DNA of 32,000 bases from Candidatus Saccharimonadota bacterium (GCA_963706795.1 OY970170.1:1200001-1232000); one strand, 5' to 3'; counted from the first letter of the stretch, positions 5,179-31,651 are shown. Notes: generated by a model from the sequence alone, not told the origin. Translations and numbers: made by a program.

Positions 5179-5219
5179 AAAAATCCTCCACACTCTTACG
5201 AGTTACGGAGGATTTTTTT
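5177..5219. terminator. bidirectional rho-independent terminator between the convergent 4543..5178 gene and lepA
   Basis: AAAAAAATCCTCC-acaCTCttacGAGttac-GGAGGATTTTTTT. An A-run sits on one side and a T-run on the other, so it can act on both strands. It overlaps the lepA stop codon. It is copy 1 of a three-member motif family described in the findings. Confidence 0.8.
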
Positions 5220-7098: not shown

Positions 7099-7190
7099 TG
7101 AAGGCAGAAAGCAATGGAAACAAACAAAGTTCCGAAAGTCGGATTTTCGCCGTATCTTATGGAAAAAAGCGTAAAAAGCGAAACAAAAAA

Positions 7191-7595
7191 CTATGCAACA
7201 GAGCGAGGTCTATCGCCTTTTTCTATATCTTGTTTTTGTCGATGAGTGGATTCGATAACAATGGATCATTGGCCAGAATTATCAGCATATACAACAAGAT
7301 TTTTGGATCGTGCTGTTGGATTTGAGAGAAGAACAATATTTTGATATTCTCGCGCATTAATATCTGTGGCAAGTATGCGAATACTCTGAAGAAGATCTTC
7401 AATCTCACTTCCGCCAAGAGAACCTGGATCCTGTTTGAGGATTTCTTGGATACTTTCACGCTCAGATACTATTGTATCGATTGCAGCATACACTGATTTC
7501 AAAACACGTGACATTGGCGCAAGAACCGGAGATTTTTCTTGTCAGACTTGAGGCTGATTTTTTATGAGCGGTACAACGTTATTTGATGAAATCAT
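7191..7595 (-). CDS. hypothetical protein (134 aa from ATG 7595, or 107 aa from ATG 7514)
   Basis: Track ORF 7266..7514 continues through TGA 7266-7268 to TAG 7191-7193. Upstream, the same frame stays open through TGA 7542-7544 to an ATG at 7593-7595. It lies 92 nt upstream of lepA on the same strand. I recognise no family. Confidence 0.55.
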
Positions 7596-9768: not shown

Positions 9769-12700
9769 ATGATGGGCGCAAACAAACTTCCTCCTTCACA
9801 CAACAATCGCAACGGGATTGTGGGTCGCGTAATCGGTGGTCTTCAGAAAAAAAAGAATGCCGCGATTCTAGCACTCGGCATCATCAGTAATTCCTATGCT
9901 GAAAATCCAAAGACTCCAGAGTTTCCACTTGAGTCTCCTGAAACATCGACGCTTGTTTTGCAAACTGCAGATCGCATCAGTGGTACAATGCAAGAAACAG
10001 ATGCAAATTCTTCTGTTTTTGTACGTAAACCGCTCGTTGTAGCACAGGCTGGAAAGCAAGCACCAGTTATCGATCTTCCTGATCTTGGTGAAAAAAAGCC
10101 AACGAGTACCAAACTCAATTATAATCTCACGCCAAATGGTGGAGCGGTAAATATGATCATGGTTGGTACCCAGATTGAGCTCGGAGTGGATTATTCAGAA
10201 TTCTCAAAAGGTGTTTTCTGAAAACTCACACAGATGGTTGGAGAAAAAAACGAATCTGCAGTATCGATCTCTGTACGCGCATGAAAGGATGAGGTAGATC
10301 TCTTTGGTAATTTTGCAACCAAAGTAAGCAGCAGTGGAATTTTGACTTTTTCACTCCGCGATCTCAGACAAAATGCAGATTTCTTGCTTGGTGATGTAAC
10401 TCGAAGAGTACGTGTACAAGAAAGTCTTGCTGGAGCGACATTTATCCTCAATGGCTCTGGAGCAATTAGCCAATTTAAGTCTTCTCTCTACGTCTCACGA
10501 GCTCCATCAAAATATCTCGGAGAAAGAACTGTAGTCATTGATAACGCAGATCTCTATCGCGAATTCACTCTTCCAGAAAATATTGCCGGAACAAAGATCT
10601 ACGGAGCTCGAACCGGAGGAACACTCAAATGAGACTTCAACCTTTCATTTGAAGCTTCAGTCGGTTACGAAAGAAGCAAAACTGACTATCTCAATCCTGA
10701 GCGCAGCACAACGCCAGCAATCCAAAATACTGCAGTATTTTCAGGAAAGATTAATTACACTGGACGCACAGGCTCAGCATATTTAGAGAGTGTGAAGAGT
10801 TACGGTTCAGTACGAACTACTATCGGAGTTACTCAAGCACTCGACACAGAGCGCAGACTCAATGCTATCATCAAAGCATATACCGTACGAGGATCTAATG
10901 GATACGGAAATGATTCTGGAGCCTCTATCCATCTCAGTTATGATTTTGGATCTGGAGTGAAACGATCTGCCAATAGTGTGTCTCTTGCTGGATACAAAAA
11001 TAGTGTAGGAAGCAGAGATGTCTTTAGTGCAGCATCGGAGCGCCCAGATTTTGCTTCTTCGACACGAGTTCATGCCCAGGCTGATAACACGGTGCTACCT
11101 ACCACAAAAATTGAGATTTCTAAGGCGGGTCTCAATGGTGTTGGAACTGTAAATAAACAGGGTGATATTCTTATCCCTGTAAATCTTGGTGAAGTATCAC
11201 AGTATGGAGCATTTCTTGGTGGTACCGATGAGACTACAGGACAGGCACTGCCAGCGGGAGCAGTCGAGGTGGTTAATGGAAACCTTGTAATTCATCCAAA
11301 AATCCTCGAGGCAGCTCTCGCAGGATCAAACGCGAGCTCGCCACACCGACTTGTCCTCAAGTTTGCAAACGGACAGATCATCGTTGGTGCCTACAAGGGA
11401 TCAGTTCACATTACCGAAGTCACTCTCGATAGCCCAACGGTGCTTTCGGCTCCAACAGTTACGAATATAACTCTCAACAGCTTTACAGTCGAGGGCGGAA
11501 TTGCAGACGCGAATGGCGTAACGAACAAGACATATTTTGTCTACGCATCTGATCCTACAGGCAACAAGGATACAAAGGTGATCACAAGTGCTCCAGTATG
11601 AAACGGAACTACTCAAATCACGAGTGATCAGTTCACTATTTCTGGTGAATACTTCGTTCGAATGAGCGGACTGGCAAAACAGGGCAAGACCATGGTTCTC
11701 GTGGACTCCCAAGTTACCAAGGTCAAACTCGCAGCACCGACAAAACCTGAAGCTCCAGCGGATTGCAAGGCATTCAAAAATGTGATTTATTGTGGATCTA
11801 ATCTTCGAAATCTCGAAGTCAGCATAAACGGTGGATCTTGGGTAAACTACGTTGATGGCGTAAGCTACGGAGTTGGTGATACATCATCAACCAAGGTCAG
11901 CATTCGAGTAAAGGCTCTGAATGGAAATCTTCCAAGTGATCCAGTGAATTTTGAACTCACTCCAGCAGCAGTAACACCTGCGGCCATTGCTGCAAAAGCA
12001 AATCAGGTAACTCGCACCATCGAGCTTCCAACTACAATTGATCCAGCAACGGTTGAAGTTTCTACTGATAAAAATACTTGGTCAGCATATTTAGCTACAA
12101 CCAAGTACAGTGGAAATACCACAGTCTATGTACGAATCAAAAAATCGAATATTCCTGCCGGCGAAATTTCATCGGTAGAGTTCAAGATTGCACAGCCGAC
12201 TATCCTCGTAGCAAATGACAGTATCGAACTCGAATCCGGTACATCTGGCGGCCTCGGAGCCCCACGCTTCAGTGACCAAAGTAGCCTTGTCCTTACATTC
12301 ACGCTTACAAATGTTGATGCACGTCTTGGAAAGGTAACTATCCAAGACAATGGAGTAATTAATTTTGGAGACAAAATCGCACCTGGAACCTACAGCGTGA
12401 CCCGAGTGATTAGTTTTGCTGGTGGAGATCCGATTACACAGGCTATCAAAGTTGTTGTTCGAGAGAAGGCCAATCCTGAGGAATTCACACCTACTATCGC
12501 TGCACCAACAGTCAGTACAACCGAAACTTCAGCAACGATTACAAATCGTATCTCGAGTCCGCAGAGTATGCAGGATGTACGATACTTCTTGTTTACTGCC
12601 AATGGTACTCCAGTAGGTAATCCAAATGGACAGAATGCTGCTACATTTAACGGTCTCACACCAGACACTGAATACTTTGCAAAAACTTCGGCACGCGTAT

Positions 12701-13941
12701 TTAATCCACCAGGAGGACTCTTACTTGTTATTTCTCCTTCGACTGCAGTTTTTAAAACAGTTGCAACAGTAATTGTAGCACCCAACAAGCCACCAGAATT
12801 CAATGGAAGCTTCTCAGATCAGAGCTTTACAAAGAATACTTTCACGAGTCTTACGCTTACAACTGCAACTGATCCAGAAGGAAAAAATGTAACGTACTCG
12901 GCAACAGGACTTCCAGCTGGAATGACTTTTGATTCAAACAATCGAGTCATCTCAGGAACACCAACTGTTAATGGCGTATATACTATTACCTATACAGCGG
13001 TAGATCCGCTTGGAGCACCTGTGTCAGCGAATTTTAAAATTACCGTTGCAGACGCACCAATCATTATCGTGCCAAATATTCCACCAGTCTTTACAGGTGG
13101 AGTCAGCAATCACCCAAGCTTCGTGCAGAATGTTGCTATCACGCCATACGTTCTTACGGCAGCTACTGACCTTCAGGCTATTACGTACTCCGTAAGCGGT
13201 CTTCCTGCTGGTCTTAGCTTTAATCCAGCTACACGTACTGTCTCAGGAACACCAACTGGAACCGGTGCATCAACTGTTACTTATACAGCAACTGACTCAC
13301 TTGGAGCTACAGCTACTCTGTCATACACCGACACCGTAAGTGCACCTATTGATACTTCACCAGATGCATTCGATATTACGAATGTCACAAATCAGTCTAT
13401 CTCTACAGTTATTACAACTGGAGCAATTACGGTAAGTGGCATTACTGCTGCAACTCCCGTCAATGCATCAACGACTCTTGGTACGATTGTTAAGAACAAT
13501 ACTGATACTGGACTCACTTCTACAACTGTAGTATTGGGCGATACAGTAGCCGTAAAGCTTACGACCTCGGCGACATATGGCGCAACACAAAATGGAACCG
13601 TAACCATTGGTGGAGAGAGTGACGGATTTTCTGTCATAACAAAGGCGAATACCCCACCAGTCATCTCATCAGACGGAGACTTCTCAGCAACCCATAATGT
13701 ACAATCCGCAGAGCGCACACTTACTGTATCGAACGCAAATGGAGGAAATATCACGGTGACCGCTGATTCGGATGACCCAACTTGTTCTATCATTTTTACA
13801 ACCACTACGACAGTAAATGGGTCGGGGGTTGTAAAATATCGAGTATTTGGTACAGCTTCAGGACTTCCAACGATTACTTTCACAGTCACAAACGATGGAA
13901 GTCTTGGCTCACAGACAGCTGTAAACGTAACTATGAATTAA
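9769..13941 (+). CDS. giant secreted surface protein 1 (1390 aa): N-terminal beta-strand-rich region followed by Fn3-like and two He_PIG-type (putative Ig) domains
   Basis: Track ORFs 9769, 10342, 10792 and 11662 are all in one frame. The gaps contain only TGA (10219, 10282, 10630, 11599) and no TAA/TAG until TAA 13939-13941. The signal-like N-terminus is ..KKKNAAILALGIISNSYA/ENP. The Fn3-like block is TPTIAAPTVSTTETSATITNRISSP..FNGLTPDTEYFAKTSARV. Two tandem repeats follow: ..VTYSATGLPAGMTFDSNNRVISGTPTVNGVYTITYTAVDPLGA and ..ITYSVSGLPAGLSFNPATRTVSGTPTGTGASTVTYTATDSLGA, which match the He_PIG/dystroglycan-type Ig signature. Confidence 0.9.
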
Positions 13942-14020
13942 TCTGAGCATTACATTCGAGACAGCCAGATTTGCCTTGCCGAGTATCTCGGTATAATCCA
14001 GCAAAGCTTCCTGTCTTTGA

Positions 14021-17000
14021 ATGAGTAAAATGAGACCCAAAAATGACCGATTCAGACGCTGTATTGCAAGCATCATAGCAACTACGCTCTTTTTGGGTCA
14101 TTTTTCTTCTATTCCAACAGCATTTGCAGCGGATACTTTCACGCTTTCTGCAACAGAAACAACTGGTCAAACTGTTATCAATCCTGGAGGAACACTCAAA
14201 TATAACGTTTTCCTCAAGAATAATACAAGTTCGTCAAACGGGGCAACTAGTCCATGAATTGGAGTTTCTTTTGATCACACAGAGTTCACCTACAGTGGCT
14301 CGACATGGTCTACCACTCAAGTACCAGCTGGCTCTGGTGGAGCAGGATTTAATCCACCAAGCAGCAATACTGGTACATTTGATGTGGGCACGCTTCAGGT
14401 TTGAAAAACCGCAAAACTCAGCGATTTTACCATCGTCTTAAACCAAAACTATACAGCTACGAGCATCACGCTTACCGCAAATGGTTTTGCTTCCAACTTC
14501 CCTACTATTACGCGAAGTGCTGCAACCATCGCAGTTAACTCAACACCGCATATTAAATCGGTCGTACTGAGCAAGGGGTCAATTATCAACAATGGAATCG
14601 ATTCTGTAAATGCGACTGTTCGTGTTTTGGATTATAACGGATGTTCGAATCTCTCAGGCGGCTCATCGACAATGACGCTCGATACGAGTGCGCTTTGAGG
14701 ATCTTCTGCACTTGCGCCATCGAGCTCGGGGTGTGATGTAGACGGAGTGACTGTTGTGTATACCTTTAATGGTATAGTGACTTCAAATGGACTCTCTGCA
14801 GGATCAAAAAATCTTACGGCAACCGCACGAGATGCTGAGTGACACCTTGCAAATTCTGATGCGAATTTTACGAGCGATGATGGCTCACCAACGGGCACGA
14901 TCACAGTCAATACTGCCACCGCACCAGTGGTAACAGCACTCTGAGCGACACCTTCACCTGTGAGGGCAGGTCAGACCGTCACAGTATCATGGCAATCGAG
15001 CCAAACAGGAAGTTATGCACTCTACTCAGGATCTGGAGCCGCCTGCTGAGCAGGAAGTCTCTTCGCATCTGGAAATGTCGCAGCAATAAATTCTCCGATT
15101 TTTTCAAATCTCTCTTCTGATACACTGCCAGAAGGAGTATTAAATCTCGCGCTTTGTGTGACTAATGCCGAGCCAACAACAGGTTCTACGCTTCAGGCAA
15201 TTACCAAGGACACGGTAGCACCAATGATCACTATTGGTGAATACTCTAACAACATTACATCGCAGAATGTTAGTTTAGGATTTCAATCAAATGAACTCGG
15301 GACATATCGTGTACTCGTAAATAATATCGATACCGGAGTCACCGGTACTGTTTCGGCAATTAATACGACGGTAACTGTAAGTGTGCCAAATGCTGCTTTT
15401 ACGATCAATCCCTGAAACAACGACGTCCGTGTCACAGTAACTGATGCTGCAGGAAATGTCGGGAATTCTAGTACTGTACAAGTCAATAAGGATTTTACAC
15501 CACCGGCTCCGGTAACCAATGTACAGCTCACAGACTGTGACTATATAGGTAATAACGGCACGCCTTGCGCACTTCTCGGTAATCCCCGCTCAGGAATGTC
15601 TGGACGAGATTTTTATGTGCAATGGGATACGCCAACCGGATCTGGAGGATTTGCGACCTATGACATATTTGTATTGCCAGTTGGAACCACAGTCGATACC
15701 AATATTCATACTCCTGTAAAAAGCGTCGGAGGATTTACAAGCACTGGAAGCTTCTTGCTTGATGGACAAGCAACTGATAGTTCCGGATCACTCTTGCCAC
15801 AAACAGGAACAGGTCAATATGTTGCATCGGTACTCGTACATAAATTTAATGGACTCTATTCAAGTACGGTATCTTCGAGTGGCACAATCATTACAGCAGA
15901 TGCAATCACCTATCCAACTATCTCGAGCGCTGCATTTACTTCGAATACAAGTCTGACTCTTACATATAACAAAACTCTCACTTGAGCTTTAACAGGATAT
16001 AATTCTAGTAAACTGAGTTCACCAAGCAGTTGTTTTGTTATAGATACGAGCACAGGCACGGGAGCAAAATCCATGACCGGAAGCATAGTCACTTTTGCTG
16101 TTCAGCCACTCTGAAATCTCTCAAAAACCTGTTCAGATCTTGCAGTCACTGGAACATGACTCGTAGTTGATTCTCAAAATCTCTATAGCGAAGAGACTCC
16201 ATCTGGTATTACTGTAAATGACTGACAAACTCCCCTGCCACTTACTATTACTGCTCCGACAAGTAATTCGTTTGTAGGAGGAAACGGAGCTTTTAATCTC
16301 GTCTACAATCTACCAGAAGCGATGTCAGGAAGCACGCTCAAAGCAACCCTCACCGATGGTTCTGGTGCAACTATCCAAGTACCACTTACACTTGCAACAG
16401 CAGGAAGTCATACAAAAACACTCACATGATCAGTGATCGGCCTCGTGGATGGGAAGGTCTATAGCATCGTAATCTCTGGACAAGATCTCGCTGGAAATGC
16501 GGGTATTTCGAGCGCCGTAACCGGTATTACCTACGATCTCACTCCGCCAAGTATTCCAGTACTTTCGTCACCCGTAGATGGAATTTATACGAACCTAACT
16601 GCTCCTGCACTTGCATGGATCATGGCGAATGATAACTATTCTGCTGCGGTAAATATCTCATATAAAGTCGAGGTTTCGCTCGCTTCAGACTTCTCGACCC
16701 TAGTATCGAGCGGATCAATATCGAGTGGTACGGGCTTTACAGTGAATCCTTCGCTCACAACAAGCGCTCCATACTACTGGCGTGTTCAGGCCATTGACCA
16801 AGCCGGCAATGTCAGCTCCTTTTGTGTAGCTCGAAGCTTCACCTTTGATAACATTGATCCAGTTATTAGTCCGATCGCAACAAATACCTACGTACAAAAT
16901 ATCAGTCGCTCATTTACTGGATTCGTACGAAATGGGGACAATATAGAAGTTCGCTCCGTGATTACGGACAATTTTAACACGCAGATGACCACTGCGAATG

Positions 17001-20000
17001 TTGTTGCGGATCTTTCGGCGCTTGGATGAGGATCTACAACGATTGCGAGCACATACAACAATCTCAGTGGCGCAGCAGTCTGGAGTCTCACTGCAACATG
17101 TACTGATGGTACAAAAAATATCCCACTTACTGCTACGGATAAAGCAGGTAATATAGTTAACTATACGGTCACAACTATCTGTGATAACACAGGGCCAGCG
17201 CTTCTTGCAAATTCGGTACTTACTCCAGCAAATGGTGCATATTTGAGTGGTGGGGTGTCGTATGACATCACATGGAATCCAGCTTTTTATAGTACTGAGC
17301 TTAGCCCAATAGGTAGCCCTATCGATATTGATTTTTCACAAACTGGAGCTTCGTGGTCTAATCTCGCAACAGCAATTCCTAATAGCGGAAGCTTCACATG
17401 GAGTGTACCATCCGTTAATCTCTCTGGTGCACAAATTCGTATCACGGCAACTGACAAGCTCGGCAATACTACAAGTGTTATCAAAACTTTTGTCATAGAC
17501 TCTACAAATCCTACTGTTGCCATTGATGCTATCACTACACCAAACGGAGGTGAATATCTCAAAGGAAGTACAGGAAGCGGTATTACCATCACTTGGAATA
17601 CTGGAAAAGTCTCTGACACCAATCTTGGAAGCACGCCAGTAACTCTCGCCTATTCAACCAACGGAAGCACCTGGAATACTATCGCATCAGGTCTTGGAAA
17701 TGCTGGAACGTATCTCTGGACAGGTGTTCCTGCACTCAATTCTGCGACTGTTCGTATAAAGCTTACAGCAACTGATCTCGCTGGAAATACTTCGACAGAT
17801 ATTTCGGATGCAGATTTTACAATAGACTCTACACTTCCAAACATTGCGGTCATTACTCCGCCAACACCAGCAACGAGCTCCTTTATCTCCGCTGGATGAT
17901 TTGATACACAGACCCAGGGATCCGACACTAATCTTTGGAAGATTGCATACTCACTCGATGATGGATCACTCTATTGGAACGAAAGTACTACAGGCTGGCT
18001 CGGAGTTCCTCAGTGGAATGATATCTGTACGAACGCTGCAACCTGTGCGACTGCAAATTACACCATCACTCCATCTATCAGCGATGGAACATCCTATCAT
18101 CTCAAATTCCGCGTAACGGATCTTGCGGGTAATATTCGTGATTCGAGCATATATACATATACGGCTGATACAGTAGCGCCGGTAGTTACAACTACGCTTC
18201 CAAATAATACTTACTACTCAGGATCTGTAAGTATTGCTGGTACAACTTCTGACGCGCGATCGGGAGTTTCGTCTACGAAGGTTTCGATTCTTCGAGAGTC
18301 AGATAATAACTACTGGAGCGGTACAGGCGGATTTACTGGTACCGCCACACTCAATCTTGCAACCACAACGAGCAATGGGTATGCAACATGGTCGTTTAAT
18401 GGATTCTCTCTGCCTGGCGGAGATGCAGACGGTACGTCATATCTCATCACTCGCAGTGCGACAGACAACGCCTACAAGATTAATAATTCCTCAACTGGAG
18501 CCACTCGTATCTATAAAGATGCTACCGGCCCAACGATTGATCCAAACGTCTGGACGAATCCTTCTACAGCAATCTTTTGGGAATGATCTGCCCCACAAAC
18601 GCTCACATGGAATACTGGAGCAATCAGCGATGCAGTCTCCGGAGTTAATCAAACAGGCGGAATTATCCTCGAGTACTATCCTACAACGGGAACTGGTTGG
18701 ATTACCATCGCATCAGGTATAGCCAATAGTGGCAGTTATATTTGGAATGTCCCAACGCTCGATACCGACCTCAATCTCCGTATCCGTGCTATCGACAATG
18801 CTGGCAATGCAGGAGCTGGAGTCACCAGTGCAACTGTTACAGTCGACAGCGTACCGCCTACGGTCTCAAGTGTATCAACTATGGATCAGTGAGCCACTGG
18901 ACAGATCGATGGACTCTTCGTAACAATGAGCGAACCAATTATTTGTTCAACTGTTCGTGCGAGCGATTTTACGATTGGCGGAATCGGCAATCCAACGAGC
19001 ATTGGTGCATGTAGCGGGAACTCAAATACATTCATTTTGAATTTTGCTCCGTTTGGGAATACTGCCTCAAAACCAACATTTACATATCTCTGAGCTGGTA
19101 CGCTTACTGACCGCGCAGCAAATCACCTCGCATCAGTTGGACCAATTACCCCAACTGATAACGCGGTACCACGTATTCTCTCTGCGAGCATTACCGATAC
19201 CAATCTCAATGGGAAGGTCGACAAAATTGCCGCTACCATGAGTGAACCAATCGCTGCTTCGAGCAATACTTCTGCATGGGCGATTGTATCCCCTGTCGCA
19301 GGAGTTGGCGCTACTCCAACTGCAGTTTCTGTATCGAGCAATATTGTAAATCTCACTATCTCAGAGCCTACAAGTTTTGATACTTCTACTGGAGGAATGT
19401 CACTTGCATTTACAACGAACTCCAATTGGAAGGACGCTGTAAATAATCCAGTTTCTTCAAATGCATCGATTAGCCTCACTGATGCAGCTCTGCCACAAGT
19501 CGTAAGTGCAAAAACAGTGGATATTGGTGGGTACTACGGTGCACAGATTGTATTCTCTGAGCCACTTTTGAGTACGACACTCGCGGGATTTGGTCTTGGT
19601 GGCACGAGCACATTTACAGGAACGATCATTAATTTGGATTCTCTCACCTATAACCTCGTAACTGCAGATGCCACTGCACTCAATACAGGCAAGACGTTCA
19701 CTCTAACATATTCAAATACTGGTCTTGTATCAGATCCAAGTGGCAATCAACTCGCAAATATCGCTTCCAAAACCGTGATCGACAACCTCGCTCCGCGCAT
19801 CATTTCACGAACAACTGCTGACACTAATCACAATGGGAAGATCGATGCCATCGTTGCCACCTATTCCGAGGTTCTCGGTGGAAGTCTCGCTGGCTATACT
19901 CCAACCGTCACAGGATATACTGTCAGTGGTTCAGTACTCTCTGGATCAACAGTAACAACACAGCTCGTCGAATGAAGCGTTCTTGATACTGACGCAACTC

Positions 20001-21613
20001 CGCTCATCCAGATCAATAACGCGAGTCTCGCCGATCAAGCAAGTAATTTCTTCCCGAGTGAATGAAGCGCAACAGCAGCTACAGATGCAGTCGGACCAAT
20101 TATTAGCGAAGCTCGTTACGATGGTACAAATACCATCTATGTCACCTTCTCAGAAGCATATTCTGGAAGCCTCTCAGCCTGATCATTTACGCTCTCAGGA
20201 TCGAGTATCACAATTACTGGAGTCGCTACACCAACAAGTACAACTGCAACTCTTACGGTAAGTGGTACAGTAAACTACGGTACGACCGAAATCTCTGCAG
20301 CCATCAATGCCATTGGAGACGCACTTAACAACAAGCAACAAGCAACTGCCTTTGTTAAGGTTAATGCTTCAGTCGTCATCAATGAAATTATGTGGTCATG
20401 AACTGGAAGCAGTGCCACTCAATATATCGAACTCCGAAATCTTGGAACTGCCTCAGTAGATATCTCCAACTGGACGATCGACAATGCAGCTTCTAACGGA
20501 ACTGCGCCACTCACGATTCCAGCAAGCAGCAGCATTGCAGCAAATGGATACTTCTTGATTGCTGCAACGAACACAAACAACGCGTCCAATCTCGTAGCAA
20601 ACAGCATTACTCCAAATGCGGTCCTAGCGCTCTCCCTCACGCCAAATCAAACAGGCAATCTCGTCCTCAAAAATAATCTTGGTACAACCTATGACCGAGC
20701 CAAGGCTAATCCTTGGGCAGCTGGAAATGATACACTTGCATACTCTATGGAGCGTAAAACAAGTGTCTGAGATGGGCTTACAGCGAGCAATTGGTATGCA
20801 GGACAGACAAACTCAGGATACTTTGATATCGCGGGCCCACGAGGTACGCCATGAAGCCCTAATGTCTTTGATGTTACACCACCAACTATTAATACGACGA
20901 GTATTGCAGACCAGCAAATTCTGCCTGCGGGGAATTACACGCAGAGTTATAGCTACACCGACGATATCAGCATAAGCGCAACTCCGGTCGTAAGCTATCT
21001 CCTCGAAAAAAACAATGGATCTGGAGCGTACACGGATGTCACAGTTGCATGAGTAAGTGCATCGTGAGCGAATGGGGCAAGCAGCACATTCACACTTCGT
21101 AATCTTGCACCTGGGGCATATCGCTCGACATTCTCAGTTCAGGATGCTGCGGGGAATAGCACTCAGGAAATCACGATATTTTATATCGACAATGCGAGCC
21201 TCAGTGTCACAAGCACTCCGATTAAAATCGGCGCAGTGAGCGCCAACACGCTCACCACCGCTGTAACCAAAGCGGTAATCACGCTCAAGACTATCGGAAC
21301 ACCGTTTAATCTCACTCTCGGCGGAAGTGGCACGCTCAGTGCGGGTATTAATAATATTCCAATTTGGGATGGAACATCAGGATATGGATATGCCTGTGCA
21401 CCAACAAATAACGCGCAACCAGATTTCTGTGATGCCACTATTCGATCTGTAACTGGCTGAGTGATCGGATCATCCCTCACAGCCAATCCAGATGTTAATG
21501 GAAACCTCAAAACCTATACATACACCATCGAGTATTCGACCAAAGTCGATGCTACAAAGCCCGCAGGAACCTATGGGGCACAATGAAAATATGACGTGCA
21601 GTTCAACTATTAA
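14021..21613 (+). CDS. giant secreted surface protein 2 (2530 aa): multi-Ig adhesin-like array, a lamin-tail domain and a C-terminal WxL-like module
   Basis: ATG 14021 gives the signal peptide ..CIASIIATTLFLGHFSSIPTAFA/ADTF. Track ORFs 14021, 15158, 15596, 16433, 17243, 19238, 20555 and 21236 are congruent mod 3. I translated every gap by hand and found 27 in-frame TGA codons and no TAA/TAG before TAA 21611-21613. At least 9 Ig-type domain ends carry D-x-[AL]-G-N (TDKAGN, TDKLGN, TDLAGN x2, IDQAGN, IDNAGN, TDAAGN, QDAAGN, QDLAGN). The lamin-tail domain lies at about 20372-20863. Confidence 0.9.
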
Positions 21614-21708
21614 TGCAGATGAAGTACTCAAAATTTTAAGCTAGATTTAAGCCTCATATCACAAACCCAAGACAGTACTAAAAACTATAAAAAGAAGGTA
21701 CTATTGTG

Positions 21709-21735
21709 TTGACTTTCCTCAAAGTTTGAGATAAT
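21709..21735 (+). promoter_or_regulatory. weak candidate promoter for the 281-aa subunit gene
   Basis: TTGACT (21709-21714), a 15-nt spacer, then GATAAT (21730-21735), about 65 nt upstream of ATG 21801. The spacer is short and the -10 element is imperfect. Confidence 0.3.
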
Positions 21736-21800
21736 GAAAGTGATAAGGATCCTCCTTACTTCATAGTCTGAATCACCTCGTTATCCCTTAGCTCTCATAT

Positions 21801-22646
21801 ATGAAAGCCAATCTCAAGAAGTCGATTGCCCTCGCAAGTGCGCTTGCAGTAGTGGCAGTTAGCACACTCTCTGTGTATGCAACCAATACTGCTATTAATG
21901 GTGCTACAGCGTCTTACTCTACAACTACAGTAACAGTTACTAACACTGCTGCTTTCACGAATGGTTCTAACGAGATTACGTTCGCTACAATCAAGAATCT
22001 TGATGGAACTGCAACAACAGGTGGACTCACGCTCACACCTTCTGGAGCAGGAACAAATGACACTTCAGTTCTTACGATCTCTGCGGATCCTTCTACTACT
22101 GATGACAACAAGGTTCTCGTAATCTCATTCGTTACTGCAACAGGTGACTTCGGTACTGCTCAGCTCACGGTTGGTACTCCAGCAAACAATACAGTAAGTG
22201 TTACTGCAAATGTTGTTCCTACACTCTCACTCACTCTTAGTGGAACGACAGTAGCTCTCGGAGCACTCGACTCAAGCACAGTGGTTACGGCAGCAACTCA
22301 CCCAACTGCGACAGTAAGAACAAATGCAATTGGAGGATTCAACCTTCTCGTTGCCAGTTCAAACAACGGACTTCACTCAACTTCTGCAAACTATACAATC
22401 TCAGGAGCAACTGCAAACTCTTCTGAAGGTTATGCACTCGCTGGTACAGAATGAGCAGATCCACAGGGAAATGGAACAACTGCTGCTTCAGTAGTTCTAT
22501 CTAACACTCCTACTCAGCTTGCATCAGGAGGACGTACAGCTGGTTACACTTCTACAATCGATGTAAAGGCTTCCATCTCAGCTCTCACTCCAGCTGCTGG
22601 AGACTACGCTGATACTCTTACATTCACTGTAACTGGTACGTTCTAG
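21801..22646 (+). CDS. secreted 281-aa protein with a C-terminal WxL-like (FxL) module; candidate abundant surface subunit
   Basis: Signal peptide MKANLKKSIALASALAVVAVSTLSVYA/TNT. Track ORF 21801..22454 continues through TGA 22452-22454 to TAG 22644-22646. The C-terminal half (VPTLSLTLSGTTVALGAL..TVRTNAIGGFNLLVAS..AGDYADTLTFTVTGTF) is paralogous to the last roughly 140 aa of the 2530-aa protein. A strong terminator follows. The CDS call is solid, but the WxL-like assignment rests on motifs and architecture only. Confidence 0.85.
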
Positions 22647-22831: not shown

Positions 22832-24025
22832 ATGAAATTCCTTTACCGAGCAATACTGTCGATTGGACTTCTCGTATCGATGGCAGACTTGGCACACGCA
22901 GATCTGTCTATTTCTCCGCTCAAGCACGAATTCACTATCGAAGCTGGAACCGAAAAATCAGAAATCATCAAAGTAACGAACGGTACCGACAAGGCAATCA
23001 CGCTCTATACATCTAAAGAAGATTTCATTGCCGGAGGTGACACAGGTACGCCTTCGTTTGTGAAACCACAGGACCGCACAAGCGACACATATGGACTCTC
23101 TGACTGGATTACAGTCGAGGACAAAAATCTCACCCTTGCAAAGGGCGAAACTCGCGAAGTACGCTTTAAGGTCAAGGTTCCAAAAACTGGTGAACCAGGT
23201 GGACACTACGGAGCGATCTTCTTTTCTCCTTCAGCACCAAGTGGATCACAGGTAGCGGTAGTACAGCGACTCTGAGTCCTCGTGCTCGTCAACGTCCCAG
23301 GAAATGTAAAAGTAGAAGGAAAGCTCGACGGATTTGAGATCGGTATGGCCGAAGCTCAAAAGCCATTTGTACCCGCAAACGAATTTAGTGCATTCCCAAT
23401 CACATTTGAGACAAAATTCAAAAATGATGGAAATGTCCACCTCAAGCCAACTGGTAAGATCGAACTTATCGACGAAGACGGCAAGACTCTCAAAAATATC
23501 GGTAAAGAAACCCTCTCAACGCCGCAAGGTCTCTATCTTGGAGAGCAGATGGTTGACTACCTCCCAATCAACAACGGACTCGGAAGCGTTCTTCCAAAGA
23601 GCGAACGTCGATTTGATTACGCATGGGAAGGATTTGGATATTCTGTACTCAATGCTGATGGCACCAAAAGCGTAAAATTTAAGAGTCTCACCGAATACTA
23701 CGCAGATCAGGCAGCCGAAAAACGCCGATTCCTCGCCTTTTATGAGTCAGTCCACAGTAGATTAGTAACCAAAAAGATTACTGCCAATCTCTCGCTCTCC
23801 TACGACGCACCTAACAAAGACCACAAGGACTTCCGAGACTCAAAGACATTTACGGTGACGTATGACGAAGACTATGTCGGAGTGAATTACTACGTTGTTG
23901 GAGGCGTCATTGCTCTCATTCTTCTCGCAGTTTGGTATGTACTCGTATTCCTACCAAAATCACGCGAAAGACTCCGCAAGCAGCTCCTTGAGGAACTCTC
24001 TGCATCTTCTCAAGAACAAGAATAA
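22832..24025 (+). CDS. membrane-anchored two-domain beta-sandwich protein (397 aa) with WxL-interacting-protein (DUF916/DUF3324)-like architecture
   Basis: ATG 22832 gives MKFLYRAILSIGLLVSMADLAHA/DLSISP. ORFs 22802..23275 and 23282..24025 share a frame and are joined across TGA 23273-23275. The N-terminal domain reads LSISPLKHEFTIEAGTEKSEIIKVTNGTDKAITLY...LTLAKGETREVRFKVKVPKTGEPGGHYGAIFF...VLVLVNVPG. A second beta-rich domain follows. The C-terminus is a TM helix plus a charged tail (VVGGVIALILLAVWYVLVFLPKSRERLRKQ). The function is inferred from layout, not from an alignment. Confidence 0.85.
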
Positions 24026-24048: not shown

Positions 24049-24495
24049 ATGTTTCTAAAACGAATCCGCTCGTACGCACTCACGGTTACAACGGTACTCG
24101 TTTTTGCTGTGGCTTCCTTTAGTGACTCGGTGATGGTATTTTCGGACGAGCTCGTGACGATTTTTGCAAACGTAGGAATTACGAATCAACCACCGCTCGT
24201 CACCAGTATTACGCCAAGCGCTTCACCCATGCTCGTGGCTAAAAATACCTATCAGACTTTTAGCGTACAACTCACTGATGCGGATTCGAGCAATATTCTC
24301 TATACAATCAGTACAGCGAGCGGAGTGCTCTTGCCTACATCTGGAACTGCGCCTATTACTGGTGGGAATGCGGAGATCAATTTTACGTATTTTGCGCCTT
24401 CGTATAAAGCAAAACTCGTCCCAATCTATCTCACGCTCAACGACCAATCTGGAAGCACACCAATAGTGCGCCAGATCGATGTTTATGTCTATTAA
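24049..24495 (+). CDS. small secreted Ig-like protein (148 aa)
   Basis: The N-terminus MFLKRIRSYALTVTTVLVFAVASFS is a signal peptide or signal anchor. A single beta-sandwich-like domain follows (NQPPLVTSITPS..FSVQLTDADSSNILYTIS..IYLTLNDQSGSTPIVRQIDVYVY). Stop is TAA. The start lies 23 nt after the upstream stop. There are no in-frame TGA codons. Confidence 0.75.
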   Translation: MFLKRIRSYALTVTTVLVFAVASFSDSVMVFSDELVTIFANVGITNQPPLVTSITPSASPMLVAKNTYQTFSVQLTDADSSNILYTISTASGVLLPTSGTAPITGGNAEINFTYFAPSYKAKLVPIYLTLNDQSGSTPIVRQIDVYVY

Positions 24496-24502
24496 ACCGG
24501 AC

Positions 24503-25555
24503 ATGCAAAACTCCAAAATAAAAGATCCGATATTTGTCTGGACTACATGAGTTATCCTGGTGATTATTGCGATTGCTTCCATACTCTTCCATCTCAAGCC
24601 AAACGAACTCGCCATTCCCGAAGAAACGATCTCAAATGGATCGATTGATTCTTATACTCAAAATCTTTCTGCAAGCGGATCCCACTACGAAAAATCCCCA
24701 GCCTTTGGCAAGGGCGATGAACTCGAAGTGGTCTACGTAATCACTCCAGAAAGTTCGCTGAATTTTTTGGCAGACTTCCGCAAACTCAAAGATTGGCTCA
24801 ATATCGAGACCATCGATATGAATGGCGAGAAAACGAGCCCCAACGTTCTCGATACACCTGTGAGTGGTAGCGGAACAACCGTTCTCAAGATCCGTGGACA
24901 TTCAAAGCAGCCGTCTAATACTGATAGCGCTCTCACAGATGAATCAGTCAGCATCGAGTTTACCTGAAAAAAACCTCAGACCGCCCGCTCATCCAAGATT
25001 ATCACCTCAGAAACAAAATCGAGCAAGGATCTTGTACTCGATCAAACGCAGTTTTCGGTTGGAGAGAATAGCATTCTACGAGTAAATGGCGCTCAAGATC
25101 TCATCGCAAAGATCAGATACCTCAATATCGGCGGCAAGAGCCTACCAGCGATCATCTGACAGGGTAGCGCCTATGCCGTAATCGAGCGTGGAAGCTTTGA
25201 AAAGGGCGACTATTTTGTGGGTGCATTTTTGGATGATGGAACCCTCATCGGTCTCGACGGACAAGCGAGCTTTACTGGCGAGCTCAAGGCAGTGAGTATT
25301 GTTGCAATCGTTCCAAACCGAGTATCATCAGAACACGAAACATTCGTCGTACTTCAGGGCCATGGATTCCAAAAAATGGTCTCAATCCAGCTCAGCAATA
25401 GCTTTATATTCAAAAATCCGTCATTCAGTATTACCAGCGACGAAGTAGCCATTGTAAAGATACCAAAGGGGCTTTCAGCCGGAACCTACATCTTTAATAT
25501 GATGGATACAAAAGGAATCTATACAACCGATACTACTGGATTAACCGTCTACTAA
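24503..25555 (+). CDS. N-terminally membrane-anchored protein with a C-terminal IPT/TIG-like domain (350 aa)
   Basis: ATG 24503 lies 7 nt after the upstream stop and gives MQNSKIKDPIFVWTT-G-VILVIIAIASILFHL (TM helix). ORFs 24560..24967 and 25217..25555 share a frame. In-frame TGA codons are at 24548, 24965 and 25157, with no TAA/TAG between them. The C-terminal VSIVAIVPNRVSSEHETFVVLQGHGFQKMVSIQLSN..IVKIPKGLSAGTYIFNMMDTKG has an IPT/TIG-like pattern. Confidence 0.78.
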
Positions 25556-27883
25556 ATGTCATCTTCCCTCTTCGCTCGATATTGTGCATACGCCGCCCTG
25601 TTTGCCAGCTGTATTTTTGCAGTAGTAGCTCCGGCGTCGGCGGACTATATTGTTAAAAATCTCGAGGTACGAGGCGGAACTTCGTGAGCATTTAGCAATA
25701 CGCTGAGTACAGCATCAACAGGAACTCAGATTGGATTTCGCATTGGTATTATTACGGGGCCTTCTGAGCCACTTCGAGCACATAGAGCGACCCTCGCATT
25801 ACCTATTGGACTCACAGCAAGCGGATATACCGTAGAGAGTCTTGATTGCACAACAGGTATTACCAACGTATCTCAGGCATACAATAATTTTTCGTTTGAT
25901 TATCCAGGAGGCTCAGATTGTGAAATCATTCTCGTGGCAAACTACCGCACAGCAGGACTGAGCGGAAGCCTCTATCAGCCATCAGTAACGCTATCAGATT
26001 CGGTTGACGGGACATTTTTAAATGGGAATGATCTCCTGAGCTCGAGCAATCAGGTGACGCTTAATATAACTTCACTTGTCACCATTCAATCAGCAATTAC
26101 TCGCGATACGAATGGAGATGGGTATATTGACCGCTTTGATCTCACCCTCAACAATCCTGCACCTGCAAGCGCACCGACCTGACCCATCTCGGTGGTTGTT
26201 GATGCAAAAACAGCAACGGGTGTAGTGTTTAGCGCAACACCGTGAGCATTTACCGGAACACTCTCATTTTCGGATGGATACATTCGTGGCAATGAAACAC
26301 CGCGCATCAGCATCGTGGGTGATGCATTTTATGCCTCAGGTGATTACTTTTCAGAAGTCGTAGAAGACGGTGCTGCACCAAAAATTACTGCAACGCCAGC
26401 AGGAGGAACATTCACTGGTAGTAAATCAGTAAGTCTTGCCTCGAGCGAAAGCGGTTCACTCTTCTATACATTTACTGGAAGCGCGAATAGTGGCTCGACA
26501 CTTTATAGCCTACCATTCAGCATCAATTCAAATACTACACTGAGTGTGTTCACACAAGATATTTGGACAAATAGTCGTACAACAAACTTTGTATTTACAT
26601 TCCAGTGTCCGCTTGCCGCACCAGTAAACGGAACAATCAGCGGATACCCAAGCTGTGTAGTTACATGTGACTCTGGCTACCAGCTGAACGGCGGACTCTG
26701 TACAGCAATCCCCCCACCTGCAAGCGGTGGTGGTGGTGGAGGTGGGGGCGGAGGCGGAGGATGAAGCATCGTCGTAGGAACACCGAAGGATACATGTCCA
26801 CAGGGTGATACTTCTGGTAATACCAATGATGGTCGCTGTACACCGCTCATATCAGGCAGTGGCAGTACTTCATCCGGAACCACGAGTGGCAGTGGAACAA
26901 CCGATCCTGTTATCAATCTTCCAGGAAATACCGGAACTCTGAGTCCAATCTCAGGACTTGGCTATGCAACGCTCGATCTCCCCTATTTTACATCGCTTCA
27001 GGCGGCTCGTGATTATCTAAATTCGCAGATTGCAGACACTCGTATCCGAAACTTAATCCGCACGCACTATAATCGTCTCGCCTTTGCAGATGCAAGTTAC
27101 TATCTCTCATTTGATGCGGACTTTGCAAAGACCTACAATCGATCAATTAATGCCTACGTGCTCTATATCCTAAGAAGCGAAGATGTACGAGTTGGTAAAA
27201 ATATTCTCGCATCAAGACAAGAAGTCTCAAAGTCTCTTCTGATCTTAAATACGACCTACACGACTATTAGTACCATTGATACGCGCTATGTTCGTCTTGC
27301 GAAGGTCATTGGCAAATATCCTTCGACTGTATATCGCACAAAGGTAGCTTCGCTTCGTAATAGTCTCACACGTGCTGAACTTCGATATATAGGTAAATTT
27401 AAGCGACTCGTTGTATCTGGAACTATTACTCCTGACGCATTCCAGAAAGCGGTTCAGAGCTATAATCGCTATGTTCTTGTGAAGTCTGTTGCAGTTTTAT
27501 ATGCATCTGCTGCACCTTCAGATGCTCTTGGTAATACGGCATACGACGAAATCGAGGCAATCTATGCACTCAAAATAAAACTCACGTCTCCGGTGAGTGT
27601 TACACCTATTCCGACTCCAGTTATTCCTGTAGCACTTCCAAAAGTGGGTGATTACTACAGCCTCACAAAAAATCTCCAATTCGGAATATCCGACCCTGAA
27701 GTCATGAAACTCCAAACCATTTTAAGGCACTACGGTTATATCAGCAATGAGCCAACAAACTATTTCGGCGATATTACCCGAAAAGCACTCATCAAATTTG
27801 CAGATGAGAAGCTTGGGATTAAAAATTCAAACGGCGTCTTTGATGCTACGGTGCGAAACGCGCTCCTAAATCTCAACTGGTAA
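25556..27883 (+). CDS. secreted 775-aa protein with a CHB_HEX_C/Fn3-associated-like domain, a poly-Gly linker and a C-terminal peptidoglycan-binding (PG_binding_1-like) domain
   Basis: The ATG directly abuts the upstream TAA (25553-25555/25556). Signal peptide: MSSSLFARYCAYAALFASCIFAVVAPASA/DY. ORFs 25934, 26315 and 27158 share a frame. In-frame TGA codons are at about 25685, 26180, about 26243 and 26762. The gaps were checked and are free of TAA/TAG. Stop is TAA 27881-27883. The C-terminus reads LQFGISDPEVMKLQTILRHYGYISNEPTNYFGDITRKALIKFADEKLGIKNSNGVFDATVRNALL, which matches the PG_binding_1 pattern (G..V..LQ..L...GY....G.FG..T..A...F....GL...G). Confidence 0.88.
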
Positions 27884-29941: not shown

Positions 29942-31651
29942 TTATTGTACGTTTACTGTGACCCAACCATCTGTATATCCGCTACTTCCACTACAACGGA
30001 TTCGGAATGTTGTAGTTGTATAGACATTACCTGTGTAGGTGCTTCCTGATACTGGGAGAGCAACGGTATTGCCACTCGCATCAGTTCGTTCACATGATGT
30101 GGCATTAGTAGCATTCCAAAGAAGTGTTGTTTGACCTCCAGACTGTACAGTGCTTGGTGAAGCTGCAATAACCACTGTCGGAAGCACTCCTGTTGTTCCT
30201 CCGTTGCCAATTACGGTTCCAGATGAGTTATTTACACCAACTGTAACATATGCCTGGCTATAACCACCTGGACCAGTACATCGGATATAAAAACTTGTAG
30301 TAGTCGAAAGTGGACCAACAAACGCATTTCCTGAAACTGGTACAGATTCGAATGCACCACTTACATTTGATCGCTCACATGTTGTTGCGTTTACTGCATT
30401 CCAGATGAGGACTGCGCTGCTTCCCATTGAGACTGTACTCGATGCTGCAGTCATAGTAACTGTAGGCAGGAGAAGCGTTGTTACTGGCAATACATTTACT
30501 GTAATGGACTCTTTAGAGCTTCCGTATGAACCGCTACAATTAAAGTAGAATGTCGTGCTCGCCGTGAGTGGCCCAGTACTTACACTTCCAGAAGTATTGA
30601 TATTACCGAAGTAGTTACCCGTCGTACTTGTCTGCTCACATGTATTGGCATTAGAAGCACTCCATGTGAGAGTGACGCTTTCTCCTGAATTAACCGTTGT
30701 TTTAGATGCTGCGAGATTGATACTCGGAGTCCATGTCTGTGGAGAAATTGGAGGTACTGCATTAACCGTTACAGCTCCAAAAGCCACTCCACCTGGACCA
30801 CTACATCTAATACGGAAAGTTGTATTTTTCCAAATAGGTTCTGAGAATGCCGCACCATATACTGGTGTATTTGCAAATGCTCCAGCAGCATTTGTACGTG
30901 TACAGTATGTTGCATTGGTTGATGTCCATGTGAGAGTCGCGCTCTTACCAGAAGCAACACTCGAAGCGTCAGAACTGATACTTACTGTTGGTCGACCATA
31001 ATTTGAAGTAGATGGTGGATTGATAATCGGTGTATCAATAATGGGTGCATCCCCTACTCGCACAAGCACTGAAGCTTCAGCGATCTTGTTTTGACCAGTA
31101 CATCGGATGGTGAAAGTCGTCTCTCTTTGGAGAATCCGTACGAGTGAGCTTCCTGAAGTTTGGATAGATTCTGAGCCACCGTTACTGTCGATTCTCTTAC
31201 AAGAGAGCGCATTGGTTGAACGCCATGAGAGTGTAGCAGTATCTCCAACATAGGCTGGAAGAGTATCTGCCGAAAATGAAACCGTTGGATCAAGATTTGA
31301 TACTACCACGATGCGGATCGAAGCAGTACGAGTACCTCCTGGTCCTACACACTTGAGATTATAGCGAGTCGAGCGTGTAAGGGGTCCGACTACGAAGCTT
31401 CCAACATCGTCACCAAATATGTAATTACCAACATTGCCCGACCAGCGACATGAGTAAGCATTGCTCGCATCCCAGCTAATTGTTGTGCTTCCGCCAACGG
31501 TTACAAACATAGGATCACCCTTGATGCTGATCTCTGGAGCAGGAACAGAAGTATCTACCCCTTCTACGAAGGCTGAAGCTGATGAAGTGACTGATAGAGC
31601 AAAAATAGCTACCAATCAAACCCATCGCGCAACCGAAAGTTTTGAAAACAT
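29942..31651 (-). CDS. secreted protein made of six tandem two-cysteine Ig-like repeats (569 aa)
   Basis: ATG 31651 gives MFSKLSVARWV-G-LVAIFALSVTSSASA/FVEG (signal peptide, with the only in-frame TGA at 31616-31618). Six repeats of about 85-90 aa follow, each with [ST]-[LI]-x-W-x-[AS]-x-N-A-x-x-C ... F-x-[IF]-x-C-x-G-x-G-G. Stop is TAA 29942-29944. Confidence 0.88.
29945..31537 (-). repeat. six diverged tandem coding repeats (about 255-270 nt each)
   Basis: The protein-level repeat cores are TISWDASNAYSC..YNLKCVGPGG, TLSWRSTNALSC..FTIRCTGQN, TLTWTSTNATYC..FRIRCSGPGG, TLTWSASNANTC..FYFNCSGSYG, VLIWNAVNATTC..FYIRCTGPGG and TLLWNATNATSC..FRIRCSGSSG. Confidence 0.85.

Follow-up and report, generated by a model that had tools for sequence, protein, structure and literature searches.

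The closest described counterparts of the locus analysed here are the WxL/Csc gene clusters of Lactobacillales, Listeria and Bacillus, in which CscB is a small WxL protein, CscC a large WxL protein and CscA the WxL-interacting protein, WxLIP, with its DUF916-DUF3324 architecture (Siezen 2006 PMC1534035; Hassan & Williamson PMC9772566, PMC10599100). A minimal cluster comprises a small WxL protein, a large one carrying the domain at its C-terminus, and a WxLIP in which DUF916 and DUF3324 are followed by a transmembrane (TM) helix (PMC9772566, PMC10599100), and published surveys place more than 91% of WxL in Firmicutes. Here we describe a locus in a 32,000-nucleotide stretch of DNA from a Candidatus Saccharimonadota bacterium (GCA_963706795.1 OY970170.1:1200001-1232000, hereafter the window), where a giant secreted protein and the small secreted protein encoded next to it end in a common module and are followed by the gene of a WxLIP homologue (Table 1). 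The module is likely the counterpart, in Candidate Phyla Radiation bacteria (CPR, Patescibacteria), of the WxL docking domain, and the locus a minimal WxL-type cluster devoid of the name-giving tryptophans. WxL/WxLIP-type anchoring in this Trp-less form probably occurs widely among CPR bacteria and does not constitute a categorically new mechanism.

Table 1. Features of the surface-protein locus, with positions counted from the first nucleotide of the window.
Feature	Position	Strand	Description
Giant secreted protein gene	14021-21613	+	2,530 aa; TGA (= Gly) occurs in frame 28 times; ORFs called with TGA as a sense codon
Lamin-tail domain (LTD) of the giant	20363-20698	+	aa 2115-2226, shortly before the module; PF00932 47.9 bits vs gathering score 34.3
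C-terminal WxL-like module of the giant	21197-21610	+	aa 2393-2530, up to the stop codon; BLASTP and shuffle test
Small secreted protein gene	21801-22646	+	281 aa, mature pI ~4.2; orthologues P0002-P0008
C-terminal WxL-like module of the small protein	22221-22643	+	aa 141-281; family HMM E 6e-36
WxLIP homologue gene	22832-24025	+	397 aa; signal peptide, PGBD (ex DUF916), second Ig-like HBD-like domain, TM helix, basic tail
PGBD (DUF916-type) domain of the WxLIP homologue	22934-23227	+	aa 35-132; Pfam match coordinates
C-terminal TM helix of the WxLIP homologue	23888-23956	+	aa 353-375, YYVVGGVIALILLAVWYVLVFLP, then KSRERLRK
Three co-oriented secreted/membrane protein genes	24049-27883	+	148 aa (24049-24495), 358 aa (24479-25555), 775 aa (25556-27883)

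The giant protein consists of an N-terminal signal peptide, arrays of immunoglobulin (Ig)-like domains, a lamin-tail domain and the C-terminal module, with Pfam matches that include LTD (E 2e-12) and Big_13 (E 1e-11); the lamin-tail domain is also found in the homologous giant fragments P0011 and L003. The small protein has a signal peptide, then an N-domain of ~105 residues that is beta-rich and variable, and lastly the module, which shows the hairpin T-V-R-T / N-A-I-G-G / F-N-L-L-V as well as the tail G-D-Y-A-D-T-L-T-F-T-V-T-G-T-F-COOH. Thr, Ala, Ser and Gly are strongly enriched in both proteins, and a search for TM segments and LPXTG motifs found none in either of them, the hydropathy profiles showing no C-terminal TM segment.

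The initial annotation had proposed that the two proteins share a C-terminal module of ~140 residues, and a proper pairwise alignment, with TGA translated as a sense codon, bears this out. In BLASTP with compositional adjustment the two C-termini match at E = 1e-5 with 32% identity across 128 residues, and the Smith-Waterman score of the two modules is 113, compared with 45 +/- 8 for 2,000 composition-preserving shuffles, none of which reaches 113 (z = 8.4). When the small-protein module is slid along the whole giant, the top score falls at the giant's C-terminus, the next, unrelated place scoring 77. The N-terminal half of the small protein shows no similarity to the giant (Smith-Waterman 67 vs 67 +/- 6 for shuffles) although it is equally Thr/Ser/Ala/Gly-rich, and therefore composition does not explain the likeness. 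The similarity being significant, the paralogy of the two C-termini is fully supported by these alignments. The peptide blocks quoted earlier are all exactly present in both proteins; one of them, F-N-L, does occur in both window proteins, but its aromatic residue is not invariant in the wider family.

Word-indexed homologue searches gave 8, 3 and 13 matches, and a profile built from both families recovered 298 representative proteins at E <= 1e-3, with 36 at E <= 1e-10, from 1.84 billion cluster representatives, so that, with proteins clustered at 50% identity, the family numbers 298 clusters or more. The members come almost exclusively from CPR/Patescibacteria. Homologues of the giant module include P0009 and P0010 (63% and 46% identical, respectively), and the hidden Markov model (HMM) of the family recognises even the fragment of the giant read under genetic code table 11 (21068-21457) at E 1e-16. 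The module match stops exactly at the C-terminus in 144 of the 158 proteins examined. Its carriers are mostly 200-360 residues long, with some of 553 to 2,535 residues, and many of the ~200-residue members are essentially a signal peptide plus the module. The signature of the family begins with V-x-V-T-A-x-V-x-P-T-L ... L-G-x-L ... T-V-x-T-N-A-x-x-G-[YF]-x-[LV] and continues as G-L ... I ... [PE]-A-G-x-Y-x-D-T-L-T-[FY]-x-[VA]-T-G-x-F-COOH. No Pfam family covers the module in the 125 full-length members scanned, and a search of NCBIfam returned nothing relevant; the module is a large, uncatalogued and so far unannotated family.

The gene immediately downstream connects the locus to the WxL systems. 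Its product matches PF06030, the Pfam family for the peptidoglycan-binding domain (PGBD) of WxL-interacting proteins (E 2e-9; 37.9 bits vs a gathering score of 27.3), and its hydropathy peaks at residue 355 with a Kyte-Doolittle maximum of 2.78 across 19 residues. An alignment of CPR WxLIPs compared with one of Firmicute WxLIPs, the latter drawn from loci with genuine WxL genes, reaches 98.5% in hhalign (E 2e-15) over 215 columns that cover both Ig-like domains, and an HMM derived from the CPR proteins picks up the Firmicute WxLIP genes that neighbour genuine WxL genes, with E-values of 1e-10 to 1e-3. The TM architecture is likewise that of published WxLIPs (PMC10599100). PF06030 is matched by 17 of the 39 CPR WxLIP-like proteins. 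The N-terminal NQIDKxxxYFDLK motif of WxLIP is absent from the window protein, which has S-P-L-K-H-E-F-T-I-E-A-G; the CPR consensus x-R-F-E-x-x-G-x-P-G aligns with the Firmicute s-Y-F-D-L-x-x-x-P-G, with only the F-[DE]-[LI]...G core being kept. Judged by its sequence, the gene is a genuine WxLIP homologue.

A scan of one genome per species with a profile from a tight sub-alignment found 52 related loci, nearly all of them from CPR bacteria (Gracilibacteria, Peribacteria, Saccharibacteria, Paceibacterota, Nomurabacteria and Uhrbacteria), in which the module and WxLIP genes were called with their own HMMs under codes 11 and 25. In 44 of the 51 loci with a module, the gene directly downstream and on the same strand is WxLIP-like, the gap having a median of 17 nucleotides; at least two module genes accompany the WxLIP in 34 of the 51, and the order module-module-WxLIP recurs in 30 loci. 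Six loci are organised like the window, with a giant of 2,527-2,593 residues, a small protein and a WxLIP, and several contain two to four tandem small module genes (four in L028). A WxL cluster has been defined as at least one WxLIP and at least two WxL proteins within four genes (Hassan, Chaudhuri & Williamson 2023, PMC10599100); in the window two module genes lie immediately upstream of the WxLIP, which counts for this definition only if the module is a WxL domain. The layout of the window and the recurring trio match the published layout of the minimal WxL cluster.

The resemblance to the WxL/Csc clusters also concerns the proteins themselves. In both, a small acidic secreted protein, a large multi-domain secreted protein and a WxLIP with a C-terminal TM helix are encoded by adjacent, co-oriented genes, a common domain is present at the extreme C-terminus of the signal-peptide-bearing small and large proteins, and the passenger region of the large protein is made of Ig-like adhesin-type domains. 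The modules agree in the Y-x-x-T-L-T-aromatic-x-aliphatic tail and in a hairpin of a strand, a five-residue turn and an aromatic strand, placed in the same register. In contrast to the Firmicute clusters, the aromatic motifs are spaced 94-98 residues apart in both window proteins, compared with ~106 in small and ~68 in large WxL proteins, a further, N-terminal domain of ~105 residues precedes the module in the small protein, the giant is 2.5-5 times longer (2,530 vs 500-1,000 residues), no LPXTG (CscD) partner is present in the window cluster, and the host is a code-25 CPR bacterium. A further difference is that the CPR module is undetected by the Pfam WxL family, gives insignificant hhalign scores against canonical WxL, lacks the Asp-x-Arg-Gly element and does without Trp in either motif, where F/Y or sometimes an aliphatic residue is found instead. 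Across 139 modules, the position of the first tryptophan (W1) is occupied by Y in 54, F in 28, A in 15, L in 14, W in 11 and V in 6, and that of the second (W2) by F in 68, Y in 39, L/I/V in 30 and W in none; both are followed at +2 by L/V/I in the family. The window proteins both have F-N-L as the first motif, and F-T-V (small) and F-N-Y (giant) as the second. Position W1-8 is V/I and W1-6 is T (128 of 139), with N-A-x-x-G forming the turn. What is kept relative to WxL is the five-residue turn, the Gly at W1-1 (93%), a hydrophobic residue at W1-10, an aromatic W1 (67%), an aliphatic W1+2 and the Tyr at W2-6, which is present in 138 of 139 modules as part of Y-x-x-T-L-T-[F/Y], corresponding to Y-x-T-T-L-T-W of WxL, six residues before the C-terminus.

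The fold of the module was predicted with AlphaFold2 (AF2) for P0002, a 67%-identical orthologue, from an alignment of 57 sequences. The model is all-beta with approximately ten strands (pLDDT 96.1, pTM 0.86), and by DSSP the two aromatic motifs, which in WxL form a buried platform on neighbouring antiparallel strands, both fall within strands (54-60 and 148-154 of the model); a prediction for the full-length orthologue from 8 sequences reached a pLDDT of 55 and was left out of the fold search. The best Foldseek matches among those listed, with TM scores of 0.4-0.55, are a coherent set of donor-strand-complemented Ig-like fibre subunits (PDB 4y2l, 7zl4, 6fqa, 3me0, 9ikj and 8aur), including CfaB, CsuA/B, FimF/G, the PapG pilin domain with PapD, Caf1 and TasA-like fibres. 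The module is thus predicted to be a pilin-like beta-sandwich.

Several results weigh against counting the module among WxL domains. The Pfam family PF13731, to which the initial annotation had pointed, matches neither module even at E <= 10 and none of the 125 family members at E <= 0.01; in the positive control it matched all 22 genuine WxL proteins (best E 5e-75), a non-redundant set of small WxL proteins obtained from a metagenome DNA-motif scan for D-x-R-G-T-x-A-G-W-x-L. Against these 22 proteins hhalign gives the module 0.7%, with just 14 columns of the C-terminal strand aligned, in which A-G-x-Y-s-D-T-x-T-x-t-v-t is set on A-x-x-Y-t-t-t-L-t-W-t-L-t, and the score is ~2% for WxL of the large type and ~4% when a merged WxL profile is used. 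In the 139 modules neither of the eponymous Trp-x-Leu motifs is preserved, and the Asp at W1-8, the Arg at W1-6 and GTxAG are replaced by V, T and NAxxG. The second WxLIP domain, PF11797, is not recognised by Pfam in any of the 39 CPR WxLIPs. While the structure prediction proposed at the outset yielded a confident pilin-like sandwich, Foldseek returned no PDB match for it at E <= 1e-3, the best being ~1e-2 (>= 8.5e-3), and the solved WxL structure 9i25 is not among the 50 matches listed. Finally, the connection of the module to WxL passes through a single intermediate link of 74-82% in hhalign, which is under the level usually taken as proof of homology. With the Asp/Arg pair and both tryptophans absent, the module is therefore not filed under PF13731. 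The structure in question, PDB 9i25_A, a 'WxL domain surface protein' of 226 residues, is a weak match to the genuine-WxL profile (E 0.033).

The intermediate link is a WxL subfamily lacking the second Trp, which emerged from the same motif scan and is located on high-GC metagenome contigs (L078 689-3210; L152 1414-3712; L128 1638-4469; L068 11472-13923; L183 1321-4576). Its members keep the first motif as D-A-R-G-T-G-A-G-W-x-L, have an aliphatic residue instead of the second Trp and end in A-G-N-Y-S-S-T-I-T-V-T-A-V-T-A-P; five of the eight proteins score above the PF13731 gathering score, and the subfamily reaches 98.8% in hhalign against genuine WxL. These proteins are the nearest sequence relatives of the CPR module, which matches them at 74% (E 3e-5, 98 columns) when 57 sequences are used and at 82% (E 1e-5) with 139, compared with 0.1-1.1% for negative controls. 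The 98-column match spans from the strand of the first motif to the C-terminus, with G-[FY]-x-[LV] of the CPR module coinciding with G-W-x-L and the two tails with each other, so that the proposed correspondences of Phe with W1 and of G-x-Y...L-T-F with G-x-Y...L-T-W are reproduced, five-residue turn included. The open reading frame (ORF) L078 1385-1912 is matched by both HMMs; the profile of the bridging set gave no match in the PDB. The subfamily adjoins WxLIP genes for proteins of 380-530 residues that match the CPR HMM at E 1e-18 to 1e-25 and, as in the window, two small genes precede this CPR-resembling WxLIP gene. Unlike the CPR module, the subfamily retains the complete first motif and is accepted by Pfam as WxL. 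The loss of its second Trp implies that the name-giving second motif had already been lost outside Firmicutes. Because the direct WxL tests fail, homology rests on this one link of 74-82% together with the context, and remote descent of the module from a common ancestor with WxL is probable rather than proven. The suggested WxL relationship is thus supported by the WxLIP neighbour, which marks a WxL-type system, and by the bridging subfamily; it is not supported by PF13731, by hhalign against canonical WxL, by the tryptophans or by the Asp-x-Arg-Gly element.

In the mode of action that these features point to, the giant and the small protein would be exported via Sec, as read from their signal peptides, and both are devoid of a membrane or sortase anchor. 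The C-terminal beta-sandwich module would then keep each of them on the cell by docking non-covalently onto the WxLIP homologue, the two Ig-like domains of which would be held in the membrane by the C-terminal TM helix; the near-obligate adjacency of the genes suggests such functional coupling of module and WxLIP. In AF2 complexes of Enterococcus WxL and WxLIP, a WxLIP strand is predicted to make the beta-sandwich of WxL complete (PMC10599100), and the likeness of the module to donor-strand-complemented pilin domains fits this prediction. In view of these complexes and of the pilin-like fold, docking probably takes place by beta-strand complementation, with a WxLIP strand completing the open sandwich of the module. 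The module may also bind peptidoglycan directly, by analogy with what has been reported for Firmicute WxL. The initial annotation had assumed attachment to the cell wall; docking on the membrane-anchored WxLIP would be at least as likely. In the complex, ~2,400 residues of the giant, made up of Ig-like and lamin-tail domains, would face outwards, presumably to touch the host cell that such bacteria depend on. The same task of holding secreted proteins on a monoderm-type envelope is performed by SLH, LysM and PG_binding_1 anchors, which differ in their folds and ligands and none of which is present in the giant or the small protein. Elsewhere in the window (1140-2921, minus strand) a 594-residue secreted protein with two SLH domains (E 4e-16), a PKD domain and an Asn/Ser/Gly-rich linker is encoded, which means that a classical non-covalent wall anchor exists in this organism too.

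An unlikely alternative is that an unrelated Ig-fold of the pilin-like/SCPU/DUF4402 type was recruited as a WxLIP ligand and resembles WxL in action, not by descent. Canonical WxL is not significantly matched at either the HMM or the HMM-HMM level, and the best matches of the module profile in the PDB, weak as they are, are 8cio, a protein with an SCPU domain that is matched over its full length (E 0.17), and, at E 0.8, CsuE. The top Foldseek matches are chaperone-usher pilins, CsuA/B among them, one of the 125 family members has a marginal Pfam match to SCPU (E 0.009), and the bridging WxL proteins themselves match DUF4402 weakly. The G-x-Y-x-D-T-x-T-V tail is carried by the SCPU/DUF4402 families as well. 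The closest solved folds, those of chaperone-usher, SCPU/Csu and TasA-like subunits, are Ig-like sandwiches completed by the strand of a partner, and the partner that donates the strand has two Ig domains. However, all matches to SCPU and pilins are non-significant in sequence and weak in structure (TM 0.4-0.55), no usher-like neighbour is found in the related loci, there is no outer membrane, and the CPR partner is anchored in the membrane by a TM helix. An independent origin would also have to account for the 98-column link of 74-82% to Pfam-positive WxL proteins, compared with 0.1-1% for controls, for a hairpin turn and a Y-x-x-T-L-T-aromatic spacing identical to those of WxL, and for the fact that the partner gene, the order of the genes and the pairing of a small with a large protein are those of WxL clusters.

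A distinctly improbable possibility is that donor-strand exchange links copies of the small protein into a stalk bearing the giant as a tip adhesin, with the WxLIP as membrane-anchored base or chaperone, akin to pili of the chaperone-usher or TasA type and made by a cell that lacks an outer membrane; a more general strand-complementation assembly system of CPR bacteria, in which small proteins polymerise or stack on the WxLIP to form a fibre tipped by the giant, is improbable as well. The Foldseek matches listed are exclusively donor-strand-complemented fibre subunits, and the WxLIP, a predicted strand donor (PMC10599100), matches a periplasmic chaperone in having two Ig-like domains. Just before the fold lies a conserved segment with alternating hydrophobic residues, V-x-V-T-A-x-V-x-P, which is unstructured in the monomer model (residues 1-15), and the tandem small module genes would also suit a polymer. 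However, in the giants the corresponding segment resembles the last strand of the preceding Ig domain (F-Y-V-D) and not a free N-terminal extension, the structural matches are weak (E ~1e-2), and no dedicated signal peptidase, usher or sortase is conserved in the neighbourhood. If fibre assembly were true, chaperone-usher and TasA-type pili would have a monoderm relative in this system, which would provide the structural basis of the 'fibrous' host-attachment surface on code-25 CPR predators, and WxL, SCPU/DUF4402 and chaperone-usher pilins would form one ancient superfamily of donor-strand-completed Ig folds.

It appears very unlikely that the module serves not for retention but as a C-terminal signal for export or sorting, comparable to PEP-CTERM or to the C-terminal domains recognised by the type IX secretion system (T9SS), and is recognised and then removed. 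Its strictly C-terminal position on cargo of very different size and a marginal Por_Secre_tail match in one family member (E 0.005) would accord with such a role, but no secretion or processing machinery is linked to it, the conserved partner is a non-enzymatic membrane WxLIP homologue with two Ig-like domains, and the many ~200-residue members composed of a signal peptide and the module have therefore no cargo to sort. CPR bacteria are not known to have an outer membrane or a T9SS, and a T9SS-like sorting tag was rejected on the grounds of the unlinked machinery, the non-enzymatic partner and the cargo-less members. That the likeness is a mere by-product of Thr/Ser/Ala/Gly-rich, beta-strand-prone surface proteins with no specific common domain, as their shared composition and the lack of a Pfam match for the module might suggest, has virtually no chance of being right and was rejected in view of the shuffle test, the C-terminal placement of the best score in the 2,530-residue giant, the equally biased yet dissimilar N-domain, the invariant positions and C-terminal location in a family of 298, and the confident AF2 fold.

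The proteins described above depend on the correct reading of TGA, and the whole window (1-32000) uses genetic code 25, in which this codon specifies Gly. With table 11 the plus strand between 11.6 and 28 kb breaks into short ORFs; with TGA as sense, a single ORF of 2,539 codons with 28 in-frame TGA extends over 13997-21613 and one of 285 codons with a single TGA over 21792-22646. Both TGA codons of LepA (5218-7209, minus strand) align with conserved Gly residues of E. coli LepA, the TGA of the WxLIP gene falls into a conserved Gly column of the WxLIP alignment, and where TGA has been translated as Trp, database homologues show W at positions that are G in their relatives. The source is therefore a code-25 CPR bacterium, most likely of the Gracilibacteria; the nearest relatives of the window genes carry the labels Patescibacteria or Candidatus Gracilibacteria. 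The database copy P0001 of the small protein stops at a TGA and has 217 residues instead of 281, and in P0005 and P0008 Trp is written in place of TGA in public protein sets, all three being mis-translated because of code 25; such mis-translation conceals the module family and raises its apparent Trp content. A promoter and terminator scan of 13.5-28.5 kb showed no excess over shuffles and was uninformative.

Of the three genes downstream of the WxLIP, the last encodes a protein in which Pfam recognises CHB_HEX_C_1 and, at the C-terminus, PG_binding_1, and which also contains 13 Gly in a row. All three are kept downstream of the WxLIP in 6-8 Gracilibacteria-type loci, with the same order in L003, and may be accessory parts of the surface locus. 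Clustering of the neighbours in the related loci revealed no conserved sortase, signal peptidase or usher nearby. In the Saccharibacteria/Paceibacterota-type loci, the genes right after the WxLIP encode cohesin-domain proteins (23 loci) and a dockerin-like-repeat protein (19 loci), as in L002 3370-10267, L016 11472-12407 and ~20 other loci, which points to coupling of a cohesin-dockerin scaffold with the WxL-like cluster. The gene lying directly upstream of the giant (9769-13941, plus strand) encodes a 1,390-residue secreted protein with He_PIG/Big_9 Ig domains; this protein lacks the module and would thus be retained, if at all, by other means, and a fragment homologous to it is found upstream in L001. 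Near the end of the window (29942-31615, minus strand) lies the gene of a secreted protein of ~570 residues with approximately six repeats of ~90 residues, each containing two Cys and W-x-[AS]-x-N-A-x-x-C, with no Pfam match at E <= 1e-3.

For some module loci (L018, L033, L036, L040, L042, L050-L052 and L055), the label of the bin is Binatia, Gammaproteobacteria, Ruminococcus, cyanobacterium or Spirochaetes; several of these loci keep the module-WxLIP pair. The loci may be either mis-binned CPR contigs or real transfers, and the matches in L036, L050, L052 and L055 are weak or doubtful. Two low-GC contigs (L069 1620-7822 and L149 4096-14438), one of them from a groundwater 0.2-um assembly, encode proteins that join the canonical first WxL motif to F/Y-type tails (G-T-Y-A-G-T-I-I-F-T-I-L-COOH), a hybrid of the two flavours, and also hold several short genes for TM-anchored WxLIP-like proteins of 230-250 residues. 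The WxL DNA-motif scan of a viral collection gave chance-level matches only.

CPR bacteria make up a large share of bacterial diversity and live attached to host cells, and their giant surface proteins are thought to mediate this attachment. In Vampirococcus, the ten longest proteins have been credited with the fibrous surface of the cell, and words beginning with 'anchor' are absent from that paper (PMC8080830). Our literature search found no work linking WxL with Saccharibacteria, and in the literature searched 'WxL' and 'Patescibacteria' co-occur only in a mouse surgery/gut-microbiota study that mentions each once. Anchoring of the WxL/WxLIP type, as favoured here, would extend a system regarded as essentially Firmicute to another major lineage, with the same arrangement in Gracilibacteria, Peribacteria, Saccharibacteria, Paceibacterota, Nomurabacteria and Uhrbacteria, and would imply that the name-giving Trp residues of WxL are dispensable. 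It also gives an annotation handle on at least 298 protein clusters that have no module-covering Pfam match, going by the members scanned. For the giant adhesins of these bacteria, the locus offers a concrete candidate mechanism of anchoring, in which a Trp-less WxL-like module would dock on a membrane-anchored WxLIP.

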